Shown here: positions 26,607-31,371 of the stretch, piece after piece
How the letters are laid out: each line of letters begins with the position of its first letter
How positions within the stretch are numbered: the stretch's first letter is position 1
Source: an uncultured Chloroflexia bacterium
GTDB taxonomy: Bacteria; Chloroflexota; Ktedonobacteria; Ktedonobacterales; JADMIN01
Assembly: GCA_963718915.1 (NCBI GenBank)
Contig: CAVRAI010000003.1
Coordinates: forward strand, 420,001 to 452,000
Length of the DNA: 32,000 nucleotides
Reading direction: 5' to 3'
Program-made: the position numbers and the translations under genes
Notes under the pieces: model-generated
Database searches by the model: none
Told to the model about the DNA's origin: nothing
Seen by the model: the letters and a program-made list of their open reading frames with translations, nothing else

Positions 26607-27398
26607 CTAATGGAGAAAGTAGATACCCGCCCCAACATGGATGTAGCGGAAGTCAACGCGCCCAAAGCCGCCACCGCGCCAGGAGAAATTCATCTCGGTA
26701 ATCAGCACCCAGTAGCCATCCGGCGATACCGCGACGGCCTGCGCCCAGTGACCATCCGAGCCTGCGCCCTGCACATTCGGATTGAACCAGACCGCGGCGC
26801 CCGCAATTGGCGTGCTGGTGCGCGTATATTCTTTGCCATAGAGGATGTCTGGCTGGTTGGGATGAAGCGCCTGCACCCACCAGTTGCAGTAGCCAAAGGT
26901 GCTGCTGGCATGGTAGACAGAGCGGTTGGGATAGTAAATGTTCGCGTAGCAGCCGGGTGGGACGGTCCACTGGCTGATGCTCGCGACGAATATGTAGCTG
27001 TCCTGGCAGGGAAGCCCGCCAGTCGCCGTCGCATAATGCGACTGGCTCGTATGCGCCTGCACCGTCTTCCTGGTGGTATGTACCGGAGTCAGTGCCTGCG
27101 TGCTGATGCGCGACATACGGGGAATATCGTTGATGCCAGCGTCATCGGCCATCGCGCTGAACGCGGTCAGTGTCGAGGTCTGCGCCAGCGTCTGCGTCTG
27201 CGCCAGCGTCTGAACCTGGCAGGTTGGCGAGGAAGACGTCGCTCCGGCGCAGGCGGCTGCGGCGGTGGGCAACGGCGTCCAGGTCATCGCGGCGGCCAGC
27301 AGGCCAGTGATTGCCAGCGTGACACATGTCGCGGTGCGCCATACCCCACCCAGCATCTTGCGGCGCGGCGCGGTAAACTGATACGGAAGAGCGGCCAT
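26607..27398 (-). CDS. Secreted CHAP-domain protein (cysteine peptidase/amidase fold)
   Basis: 'FGYCNWWV' carries the catalytic Cys context and 'DGHWAQAVAV' the His context, followed by 'ITEMN'. The signal-like N-terminus is 'RRKMLGGVWRTATCVTLAITGLLAAA'. ATG 27398 has SD AGGAGG 10 nt upstream. ATG 27356 is the alternative start. Confidence 0.8.
   Translation of the reverse strand: MAALPYQFTAPRRKMLGGVWRTATCVTLAITGLLAAAMTWTPLPTAAAACAGATSSSPTCQVQTLAQTQTLAQTSTLTAFSAMADDAGINDIPRMSRISTQALTPVHTTRKTVQAHTSQSHYATATGGLPCQDSYIFVASISQWTVPPGCYANIYYPNRSVYHASSTFGYCNWWVQALHPNQPDILYGKEYTRTSTPIAGAAVWFNPNVQGAGSDGHWAQAVAVSPDGYWVLITEMNFSWRGGGFGRVDFRYIHVGAGIYFLH
27178..27213. repeat. In-frame 18-bp tandem duplication (GTCTGCGCCAGCGTCTGC / ...TGA)
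   Basis: The two units, 27178-27195 and 27196-27213, differ at 1 nt. They encode 'TLAQTQTLAQTS' in the linker of the CHAP protein. Confidence 0.95.
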
Positions 27399-27886
27399 AC
27401 GTACAAAACCTCCTGTGCAAGCCACCGATAAGCCAGTGGCGGTCACTCATAGGCGAGTGACGGTCTATGCACTGGAACGAGCCGCCACAATAAAGTGTCT
27501 CATTTAGGACCGGTGAATATTGTCATGAACGGGAGAAATATGACAGAAAATTCACAAAACACCATTCAGGGCAAGGCGACGCAACGGCAGATGAATTGGT
27601 TGAGAAGTCCAGGAAATTTCAGCGTTGGCTTCTGGTAATCGCGAAATTATCTGGGATATGGATTCTGCGTTGCCGATGCGGCCATCGCAACCGCCAGGGA
27701 CTATTGATGATTGTTGGAGAGGATGGGGAATCCGGGAATTAAGCCATTTCTGTAGATAGGTAACGCGAAACGACGCGAAGTTACGCAAGATGGCAAAACT
27801 GTCATCAAAACCTGTCGGCTTGAGTGTCGTTGCGCGCCCTGAATCGTGTCAGAAGAGCATAGCGAGCATACAAAAGGGGGTATTCC

Positions 27887-28300
27887 GTGCGTCTGTTGAT
27901 CTGGCATGTGGATCGTTTTCGCGCTGAACCCACCGAGCGGGGGCGCTCGAAGGTGGCGGATGCCGAGCCGCGCGCGGTCGCGGTCGAAAATGCGCTGGTC
28001 GTCTTCGCCGCCGCCGAAAAGCAGGACGAGGCCGAGCCTGACGCCGTCGCCGAGCGCGCGACGGCCGCCATCGAGGAGGTGGCGCGACAACTGGGCGCGC
28101 ATACGGTGGCGCTGCACTCGTTTGCCCACCTGTTCGTCGAGCTATCAGCGCCTGCCGTCGCCCGCGCGATCCTTAACACCATGGAGCAGCAACTGGCCGC
28201 CGAGGGCTACTCCGTCAGCCAAAGCGCCTTTGGCTGGTTCAATCGGCTGGAACTGGACGCGAAGGGGCATCCGCTCTCGCGCATCGCCCGCCAGGTGTAG
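27887..28300 (+). CDS. Free-standing archaeal-type threonyl-tRNA synthetase editing domain (tRNA-Thr_ED / DTD-like fold)
   Basis: The 137-aa protein is collinear with the N-terminal editing domain of archaeal ThrRS as I recall it: 'MRLLIWHVD', 'LVVFAAAEKQDE', 'HSFAHL', 'SAFGWF' and 'AKGHPLSRIAR'. GTG 27887 has SD AAAGGGGG 6 nt upstream. Confidence 0.8.
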   Translation: MRLLIWHVDRFRAEPTERGRSKVADAEPRAVAVENALVVFAAAEKQDEAEPDAVAERATAAIEEVARQLGAHTVALHSFAHLFVELSAPAVARAILNTMEQQLAAEGYSVSQSAFGWFNRLELDAKGHPLSRIARQV

Positions 28301-28373: not shown

Positions 28374-29071
28374 ATGGTGAAACGGGTATTCGCGCTGGGC
28401 GCCGTGGCGCTGTCGATGCTGGTGGGCTTCGGGGGATGCGGCTTGTTACGGCACGATATGCGATCAACGATTGGGTGAATTTCGTCCGCTTCGGCGGCAT
28501 CACCTACCTGGCCAGCGTCGATGCGGGACGGGAGCTCCAGCCAGCCGATCTTGGGACGCAGTTCGCCACCGTCCGCTTTCGCCTCGACGGCAACGTCAGT
28601 GACCCAAACTATCAGCCACAGGATGGCGACGCGGCGTTTCTCGACGCGGGCACGCCAATCTATCGCGTCCAGGGCTACACGCCCACCTTCCGCCTCGCCG
28701 CCCACCAGGGAGGCCACATCGTGCTCTTCGAGGCCGATACCAACCCGCACGCGAAGACCGGCGCCGACCTGCTGGATATCGGCGGGAAGGTGCAGTCCAT
28801 CGTGGTGACCGACGACATCAGCGGCGGCGCGCCTGTAGCCACTCTTGCCGACGCGCATCTGGTCACGACGCTGGTCTCGCTCCTGCTTGCCGCGCCTGTG
28901 GACCAGTCGCGCCAGAGTGGTGACGCTACGGTGCGCTACTTCCTCGCCTTTCACCTGGCCGATGGAACGCAGGTGAGCCGTCTCTATCTGCCCGAGGCTC
29001 ACGAGGTGGCGCGGGGAATCATCGTGCCCGATGCCTTCGTCTCGACGCTGGCGGCGGCGCTTGCCAGATAG
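28374..29071 (+). pseudogene. Secreted/lipo-protein of unknown function, with signal peptide and body in different frames as assembled
   Basis: ATG 28374 (frame 0) encodes 'MVKRVFALGAVALSMLVGFGGCG..', which stops at 28478. The 211-aa body ORF 28436..29071 is in frame 2. One extra G in G5 (28431-28435) joins them: ...LSMLVGFGGMRLVTARYAINDW.... Confidence 0.6.
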
Positions 29072-30400: not shown

Positions 30401-30895
30401 CTATAAGTCAGGCGTTGGCAGGCCATTCATGCCGAGCGTGTAGAACAGCTCGCCGCCATGATGGAGGTCGTGCTCGATCAGATGCCAGATGACCCACTGG
30501 CGCGTATACGCCTCAGGATCGCCGGGATCGGGCTGGTCATTCGGAAATGTATCCGCCAGGTTGGCGAGCGTCCAGCGGCCCAAGCACTCGCTGATGACGC
30601 CCCACGACTGTTCCAGCCCCTGCTCCAGTTCGGCGGCGTTGCGCCTGGGCTGGTTGGGGCGATCCCAGACTGTCAGATTGGCCATCGTCTCGCCACCCTC
30701 GCCCATCAGTCGGTGGAACCAGCGCGCCCGCGCGCCGATGATATGCGTCACGATGGCATAGACGTTGCGCAGGTTCGGCGCTGGCCGCAACTCGAGTTGC
30801 TCCAGGGTGAGCGGCGCCACCGCCTCGACCAGATAGCGGGTGTAGACATCCCAGCCCGCGTAGACCTGCTTCAGGGTCATTGTCTCATCGCTCAT
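30401..30895 (-). CDS. DinB-family protein
   Basis: 'IVTHIIGARARWF' and the C-terminal 'WHLIEHDLHHGGEL' form the classical DinB His triad pattern. Confidence 0.88.
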   Translation of the reverse strand: MSDETMTLKQVYAGWDVYTRYLVEAVAPLTLEQLELRPAPNLRNVYAIVTHIIGARARWFHRLMGEGGETMANLTVWDRPNQPRRNAAELEQGLEQSWGVISECLGRWTLANLADTFPNDQPDPGDPEAYTRQWVIWHLIEHDLHHGGELFYTLGMNGLPTPDL

Positions 30896-31371
30896 GATTG
30901 CGCCTCCACAGATTGTCCTTGCTCCAGCATCGCGATATGTTCGCGATAGTGCTCGAAGGTGTCGCCCGCGACGAGGCCATGCATCTCCTCGTCGTCCAAC
31001 TGCTCCGTGCTCAACGTCTCGACCAGCGCCAGCGTCTCCTGATACGAATCGTCGAAGGCGGCGCGCACCTCGGCGAGCGGGCGGTCGCGGTTGGCGGCCA
31101 GCACCCCGGCGTTGATCCGGTCAACCGCCGTCTGTTCGTTCTCGCCCGGTTGGACGAGGCTCTCCTTCGCGCCGTTGACGTAGGCGATCAGGCGCTGCTC
31201 CCAGAACGTGATGTGCGCCAGCATATCTTTGACGGACCACTCACCGAATCGCCCCGGCTGGACAAACTGCTCGTCGCCGATGGTGGCAAGCAGCGCATCG
31301 AGGCGCGCATGCTCCGCGCGCATCCGGTCGGCCACGGATGTCGCTTCATTGGTCTGGTTGTTGGATGGCAT
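30892..31371 (-). CDS. DinB-superfamily (ClbS/DfsB- or MDMPI_N-like) four-helix-bundle protein
   Basis: 'WSVKDMLAHITFWEQ' and the C-terminal 'TFEHYREHIAML' are present. Its stop overlaps the downstream DinB gene's start by 4 nt (ATGA), which suggests translational coupling. Confidence 0.8.
   Translation of the reverse strand: MPSNNQTNEATSVADRMRAEHARLDALLATIGDEQFVQPGRFGEWSVKDMLAHITFWEQRLIAYVNGAKESLVQPGENEQTAVDRINAGVLAANRDRPLAEVRAAFDDSYQETLALVETLSTEQLDDEEMHGLVAGDTFEHYREHIAMLEQGQSVEAQS

Follow-up and report, generated by a model that had tools for sequence, protein, structure and literature searches.

An archaeal-type editing domain of threonyl-tRNA synthetase (ThrRS) is encoded as a stand-alone protein in the genome of an uncultured soil bacterium of the order Ktedonobacterales (Chloroflexota). 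In this study, we analyzed its gene, which lies in a window of 32,000 nucleotides (the whole stretch of DNA under analysis), and found that the product represents a conserved, free-standing branch of the family in several bacterial phyla, with a substrate pocket that departs from the archaeal one. In our preferred but tentative reading, which we rate at slightly less than even odds, the protein is a trans-acting aminoacyl-tRNA deacylase whose likeliest substrate would be Ser-tRNAThr and which would act as a second, cysteine-free check beside the N2 editing domain of ThrRS.

Gene and gene product

The identified gene (Table 1) consists of 137 uninterrupted codons, and upstream of its GTG the frame stays open for just eight codons. 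The 40 bacterial orthologues found in a scan of species-representative genomes share this N terminus, MR(L/I/V)L(I/M)WH, in most cases with an ATG as the start codon. Since the orthologues begin at the same residue and so little open frame exists upstream, the start site is secure, and the protein is truly stand-alone. All five motif blocks quoted in a preliminary description of this DNA are present in the translation, i.e., MRLLIWHVD (residues 1-9), LVVFAAAEKQDE (37-48), SFAHL (78-82), FGWF (115-118), and KGHPLSRI (126-133). The protein harbors no cysteine, which is also true for 31 of 34 Ktedonobacterales-type orthologues. Comparison with 13 orthologues yielded dN/dS values of 0.08-0.27, by which the gene is functional and under purifying selection.

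The promoters of the gene and of its divergent upstream neighbor presumably lie in the ORF-free region between them. A consensus scan around the gene revealed neither a sigma-70-like promoter nor an intrinsic terminator. Analysis of the same region with Rfam revealed no T-box, riboswitch, or leader, the sole match being a chance-level CRISPR-DR inside the coding sequence. Alignment of the downstream region with two orthologous loci was uninformative. The sequence for a lipoprotein-type signal peptide, MVKRVFALGAVALSMLVGFGGCG, lies about 75 nt after the gene and is out of frame with the following ORF of 211 aa, whose orthologues have about 230 aa; the mismatch may reflect a frameshift or an assembly error.

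Table 1. Features of the editing-domain locus and of related loci. Plain positions refer to the window; all others are given with their locus (L), genome (G), or contig (C).
Feature	Position	Strand	Remarks
Free-standing ThrRS-editing-domain-like (DTD-fold) protein gene	27887..28300	+	137 aa; GTG start, TAG stop
Shine-Dalgarno-like AAGGGGG	27874..27880	+	6 nt before GTG start; read from sequence
ORF-free region	27447..27886		440 bp; between the editing-domain gene and the divergent upstream gene
Divergent upstream gene	26607-27446	-	
Lipoprotein-type signal peptide	28375-28478		out of frame with the next ORF
Following ORF	28436-29071		211 aa
DinB/mycothiol-S-transferase-like genes	30401-30895, 30892-31371	-	2-3 kb from the editing-domain gene
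Key residues of the protein, own numbering (P. abyssi NTD)	His81 (His83), Phe118 (Tyr120), Asn119 (Lys121), Arg132 (Glu134)		
Further key residues, own numbering	Gly19-Arg20-Ser21, Gly127-His128-Pro129		Gly-Arg-Ser loop specific to the bacterial branch
thrS of the same genome	L002:1408-3246; C4:159735-161426, also given as C4:159642-161477		612 aa
tRNAThr genes	C3:840362-840436, C7:37624-37700, C7:154207-154281		three genuine genes
ARAGORN call 'tRNA-Thr(cgt)'	G000:C1:211783-211874		92 nt; probable false positive
Canonical DTD	C4:770635-771069		
YbaK/ProX-type (three) and AlaX-like (one) proteins	G000 C4:931833-932189, C9:51907-52266, C14:69689-70060, C15:451884-452015		
Second ThrRS paralogues in relatives	G053:C3:858684-860111, G041:C37:84588-86003, G027:C30:108784-110199, G002:C73:34470-35912		
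Tandem upstream copy and adjacent copy (G020)	L018:960-1484, L018:1501-1914		further such pairs: G020:C11:32459-33317; also G098
Archaeal-type ThrRS, genome sampled as Planctomycetota	L156:4-1908:- (G735:C110)	-	634 aa; contig of ~4 kb

Family and fold

The preliminary description had recognized the domain by its motifs, and the assignment is borne out by sequence, profile, and predicted fold. A search against Pfam-A gave a highly significant match to PF08915 (tRNA-Thr_ED; E = 3.5e-37, 128 bits with a cut-off of 30.2) that spans residues 1-136 of the protein and positions 1-136 of the 137-position profile. PF08915 is the only Pfam domain in the 137 aa; there is no anticodon-binding domain and no match to PF02580 (Tyr_Deacylase, DTD). 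The NCBIfam match is confined to positions 1 to ~138 of PRK03991, the model for archaeal ThrRS. The best sequence matches in the PDB were the editing domains of Methanocaldococcus jannaschii (E = 6e-22) and Pyrococcus abyssi (E = 7e-21), followed by Aeropyrum pernix ThrRS-2 (E = 1e-11).

An AlphaFold2 model built on an alignment of 20 sequences reached a mean pLDDT of 94.3 and a pTM of 0.88. In Foldseek comparisons, it superimposed on the archaeal N-terminal editing domains (NTDs) MjNTD and PabNTD (4RRF, 1Y2Q, and 3PD4) with TM scores of 0.92-0.94 at ~34% identity, in agreement with the DTD-like fold that had been predicted. D-aminoacyl-tRNA deacylases gave TM scores of only ~0.7. Neither of the two results named beforehand as counter-evidence, a non-significant PF08915 match or a fold unlike that of DTD, was thus obtained. 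DTD (PF02580) and animal ATD, which backs up ThrRS editing under oxidative stress, are free-standing proteins of ~140-150 aa that deacylate tRNAs in trans. The protein is likewise free-standing and shares their fold superfamily; it differs from both in sequence (14-18% identity) and is scored by Pfam as PF08915.

The near homologues come from named Ktedonobacterales metagenome-assembled genomes (MAGs). NCBI names them "threonyl-tRNA synthetase editing domain-containing protein," and JGI likewise names the bacterial proteins by domain. Some relatives of 137 aa (P0010, P0016, and P0099) carry the JGI name "KaiC/GvpD/RAD55 family RecA-like ATPase," which lacks Pfam support.

Distribution and phylogeny

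We further analyzed how widely PF08915 proteins occur. Carriers account for 39 of the 44 genomes of the bacterium's own family (f1) and 3 of 7 in a second family of the order (f4), and two other families of the order have none (0/5 in f2 and 0/94 in f3). In whole-phylum samples, the domain was found in 25 of 401 Chloroflexota genomes from several families (~6%) and in 26 of 301 Planctomycetota genomes (~9%), in the latter nearly always as open frames of ~145-185 aa. Most of the 40 bacterial loci from the species-representative scan belong to Ktedonobacterales. Relatives with 49-54% identity were found there in Myxococcota, Abditibacteriales, Phycisphaerae, and Acetothermia, whereas the nearest archaeal sequences share just 31-37%. 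The phyla in which the bacterial branch was found are Chloroflexota, Planctomycetota, Myxococcota, Abditibacteriota, and Bipolaricaulota. In a search without a length limit, 1.84 billion representatives yielded 606 relatives. Every match with the bacterial signature had at most 179 aa. Informative fusions were not seen, the longer matches harboring, besides PF08915, just extensions that are of low complexity or mis-called.

An unrooted tree of 132 domain sequences, calculated by maximum likelihood (LG+C20, quick search), contains a branch with an SH-aLRT value of 99 that splits 36 free-standing sequences from 96 canonical domains, including all ThrRS-fused ones. The free-standing set consists of 27 bacterial-signature sequences and a sister clade of nine, whose named members belong to Bipolaricaulota, to candidate division KSB1, and to a single Methanocellales genome. 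The proteins of the sister clade are also bare free-standing domains of ~135-140 aa without Lys121 and Glu134 (P. abyssi numbering), but they have a C-terminal …A(R/K)(V/I)(Y/F)K signature and no Gly-Arg-Ser loop. The gene is clearly not a recent capture from the tip of an archaeal thrS, and its history within the Ktedonobacterales family looks vertical. Horizontal acquisition, one of three explanations offered earlier, holds in a broad sense only: the gene belongs to an old free-standing branch scattered over several bacterial phyla.

In two genomes (G020 and G098), tandem pairs were observed. The upstream copy examined in the first ends right after FGWFN, without the C-terminal KGHPLSRVAR strand, and is probably a decaying duplicate. 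A separate case is a complete archaeal-type ThrRS with a canonical FGWYK…GHPLSE in a genome sampled as Planctomycetota (Table 1), either a whole transferred archaeal thrS or a mis-binned contig.

Substrate pocket

For the substrate pocket, 53 sequences of the bacterial branch were compared using P. abyssi numbering. Within 6 Å of the scissile bond, the archaeal domain has Pro80, Phe81, Ala82, His83, Tyr120, Lys121, and, from the other subunit, Glu134 (PMC4491819). His83 is retained in all 53 sequences, and the FG and GHP motifs are conserved as well. Phe replaces Tyr120 in 52 of the 53, and Glu134 has become Arg in 52 and Lys in one. Lys121 is found in none (Asn in 44, otherwise H/Y/S/T/G/D/F), and Pro80 is usually Ser. 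In the 137-aa protein, four of the seven positions are not as in P. abyssi, with Ser for Pro80, Phe for Tyr120, Asn for Lys121, and Arg for Glu134. The branch further harbors a Gly-Arg-Ser loop (50/53) that is not present in canonical domains, and a cysteine common in the latter (…SCKGHP…) is Ala. Overall, the protein resembles the archaeal ThrRS NTD in length, in fold, and in the His83 of FAHL, FG(W/Y), and KGHP, and isolated archaeal NTDs also act in trans; it differs in being bacterial and unfused, in the substituted residues and the extra loop, and in its separate, well-supported branch.

The consequences of such exchanges are partly known from archaeal NTDs. Neither Tyr120 nor Glu134 is required for activity or for the discrimination of Ser from Thr, PabNTD is inactivated by His83Ala, and Lys121Met severely compromises three NTDs, with the catalytic water displaced (PMC4491819). 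DTD naturally has Met at the position of Lys121 and is yet active, and the specificity of archaeal NTDs resides in main-chain atoms rather than in side chains (PMC4491819). The substitutions are compatible with hydrolysis, since Tyr120 and Glu134 are dispensable and DTD carries Met at position 121. They do mean, however, that specificity and mechanistic details are not transferable from the archaeal enzyme to the bacterial branch. A different deacylase specificity, also suggested earlier, gains plausibility from the systematic substitutions. It is an attractive speculation that the positive charge has moved, from the lost Lys121 to an Arg134 supplied by the partner subunit.

Proposed function

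We propose that the 137-aa DTD-fold protein probably forms a homodimer, which would engage mischarged tRNA at its 3' end in trans and hydrolyze the ester bond as in the archaeal ThrRS NTD, where main-chain contacts and the 2'-OH of the tRNA itself bring about hydrolysis with no catalytic side chain. The most likely substrate would be tRNAThr with a small wrong amino acid, by default Ser-tRNAThr. The fold, the retained His83, FG, and GHP, and the strong purifying selection lead to the reading as a trans-acting deacylase. Ser-tRNAThr serves as the default substrate because isolated archaeal NTDs of equal size (~140 aa) deacylate it in trans, including on Escherichia coli tRNAThr (PMC4491819). 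Besides dimerization and deacylase activity, we infer specificity for tRNAThr and serine and a role as a backup. Oxidants inactivate the N2 editing site of ThrRS, which relies on Cys182 (PMC4041444, PMC12003907), and this sensitivity would be a plausible reason for keeping a cysteine-free checkpoint beside it. Animals back up N2 editing with the DTD-fold protein ATD (PMC7302879).

Several observations are in line with Ser-tRNAThr as the substrate. The full-length PF08915 match, the confident model close to MjNTD and PabNTD, and the invariant His83 point to the same type of enzyme, and a bare archaeal domain works alone, even without Tyr120 or Glu134 (PMC4491819). The gene is kept in most genomes of its family at low dN/dS, and its product is free of cysteine. 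The genome also invests in trans-editing. It encodes a canonical DTD as well as three YbaK/ProX-type and one AlaX-like free-standing proofreading proteins (Table 1) and is rich in trans-editing factors.

In addition, the three genuine tRNAThr genes all encode U73. Archaeal tRNAThr has this discriminator base as well, and the archaeal editing domains reportedly select for archaeal tRNAThr (PMC11295145). U73 was also present in every relative from the order that was checked, with or without the editing-domain gene, and in checked carriers from Phycisphaeraceae and Acetothermia (one genome each). The discriminator was therefore rejected as a correlate of the gene, since carriers and non-carriers are alike; U73 is compatible with a tRNAThr substrate and is no evidence for it. 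A further ARAGORN call in the genome is not tRNA-like and probably a false positive.

Against Ser-tRNAThr stand the branch-wide absence of Lys121, given the severe effect of Lys121Met, and the four changed residues around the scissile bond. The protein also has no anticodon-binding domain to pick tRNAThr, and no conserved neighbor, fusion, or regulatory RNA links the gene to threonine or ThrRS. As the N2 domain of the genome's ThrRS is intact, the need for a second editor is conjectural.

A trans-acting deacylase with a substrate other than that of the archaeal domain is a real, if doubtful, possibility. Candidate substrates are another mischarged L-aminoacyl-tRNA or tRNAs that have a pyrimidine discriminator and carry glycine or a D-amino acid. 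The latter are poor substrates of bacterial DTD, the activity of which depends strongly on the discriminator base (PMC6097841). The branch-wide rewiring of the pocket and the SH-aLRT 99 branch that sets the free-standing subfamily apart from ThrRS-fused domains fit such a change, as does the fact that ThrRS editing is already intact in cis. Moreover, the DTD fold has changed specificity repeatedly, giving rise to DTD, NTD, and ATD (PMC5802732, PMC7302879). Side-chain changes, on the other hand, need not alter a specificity that resides in the main chain (PMC4491819), a canonical DTD is present in the genome, and neither a racemase nor any other informative neighbor is conserved in the bacterial branch. 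None of the tRNAThr genes has G4:U69, so an Ala-tRNAThr problem like that handled by ATD is not expected. Taken one step further, the Phe120/Asn121/Arg134 branch would be a widespread trans-editing factor with its own specificity rather than a copy of the archaeal Ser-tRNAThr editor, with Arg134 of the partner subunit assuming the water-positioning role of the lost Lys121; we regard this bolder version as rather unlikely.

Loss of hydrolytic activity, leaving a tRNA- or aminoacyl-tRNA-binding protein or some other role, seems improbable. The loss of the functionally important Lys121 and the variability at its position would agree with it, and the gained conserved arginines (Arg20 and Arg132, own numbering) could simply bind RNA, but His83, FG, GHP, and the fold as a whole show strict conservation and strong purifying selection, and DTD is active with Met in place of Lys121 (PMC4491819).

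ThrRS of the genome and its relatives

To return to Ser-tRNAThr editing as the preferred function, it would operate beside a ThrRS that has its own editing domain. The genome has one full thrS, encoding tRNA_SAD (N2), the class II core, and the anticodon domain without TGS/N1. Inspection of this only full ThrRS for the N2 editing domain, as had been suggested, revealed it to be present, with its motifs HSAAH and DLCRGQH intact. Across the order, ThrRS is N1-less with intact N2 motifs (HSAAH and DLCRG(P/Q)H, read in 17 of 29 ThrRS loci) in families with and without the editing-domain gene alike. At L002 and at loci L078-L107, the order's ThrRS begins ~30 residues before the HSAAH of N2. Carriers from Phycisphaerae and Acetothermia have a ThrRS N-terminal extension consistent with N1, and their N2 motifs are intact as well.

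Compensation for a non-editing ThrRS, in a split arrangement as in Crenarchaeota, was among the earlier suggestions and is very improbable. The lack of N1/TGS in the order would speak for it; at the motif level, however, it is already contradicted by the intact N2 in genomes with and without the gene and by the Planctomycetota and Bipolaricaulota carriers, whose ThrRS has both the N1-like extension and N2 motifs. Furthermore, an extra ThrRS copy without the first ~130 residues occurs in the family that lacks the editing-domain gene. Four such paralogues were located (Table 1). They match from residue ~126-135 onward with 48-56% identity and may be editing-less backups or antibiotic self-resistance copies; three of them are located within 1-3 kb of the main thrS.

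Crenarchaeal ThrRS-ed proteins (A. pernix ThrRS-2, 4RR6; Sulfolobus) are similar in that an archaeal-type editing domain exists apart from the catalytic ThrRS and acts in trans. The free-standing crenarchaeal copies invoked as a precedent do exist, yet they carry an anticodon-binding domain (PMC4491819), unlike the bare domain described here. Their partner ThrRS also has no editing domain, whereas the ThrRS of our genome keeps N2, and their sequence similarity to the 137-aa protein is lower than that of MjNTD and PabNTD.

Genomic context

The gene is located on a 910-kb contig of a 5.45-Mb MAG that is 90% complete, and its neighbors are bacterial, i.e., genes for SufS, SufC, Rrf2, QueC, GT87, and two DinB-family proteins. 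Synteny is shared with Ktedonobacterales contigs of the same genus that are as long as 666 kb, and one orthologue was found in a complete Ktedonobacterales chromosome of 5.07 Mb. Contamination of the assembly or very recent archaeal transfer, for which one could cite the archaea-specific label of PF08915 in Pfam and one close homologue filed under a Nitrososphaerota MAG, is hardly conceivable and is already contradicted by this contig and its synteny, by the GC content of the gene (0.68 versus 0.63 for the window), and by the much lower identity of archaeal sequences than of those from other bacterial phyla. Given the dN/dS values, the native bacterial context, and the synteny, pseudogene status and contamination were set aside.

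Some Ktedonobacterales-type copies are found under other labels, namely, L065 (JAJPIU010000200.1, Proteobacteria) and P0009 (Nitrososphaerota), with 71% and 85% identity, respectively. L065 is nested inside the Ktedonobacterales clade, and both labels look like mis-binning rather than transfer.

When the ORFs located within 3 kb at the 40 loci were clustered all against all, no partner proved to be conserved across the bacterial branch. The commonest neighbor, a DinB-family gene, was present at 6 of the 40 loci, no partner occurred at more than six, and synteny with the neighbors in the window is limited to the genus (5 loci). DinB genes were also observed directly beside the editing-domain gene in several other genera (L044, L049, L050, L060, and L065). 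This proximity could be chance, as DinB is perhaps common in the phylum.

Biological implications

The DTD-like ThrRS editing domain is treated as archaea-specific by textbooks, Pfam, and reviews, where it is presented as the archaeal solution (PMC11295145); the branch described here is bacterial, conserved, free-standing, and under selection. Neither the family nor the fold is new, and NCBI and JGI already give the bacterial proteins domain-based names. In the literature, we found no paper describing or testing bacterial PF08915 members. If the branch had its own specificity, it could be a proofreader insensitive to oxidants, stepping in once the cysteine-based N2 domain of ThrRS is off, or, alternatively, a deacylase acting on tRNAs that have U73 as the discriminator and are disfavored by bacterial DTD. 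The 137-aa protein is small, soluble-looking, and easily assayed. With Lys121, the one side chain needed by archaeal enzymes, absent and Arg (once Lys) in place of the Glu of the opposite subunit, the branch represents a natural experiment on side-chain-free proofreading by a DTD-like fold, and it may add a so far undescribed member to the trans-editing factors of bacteria.
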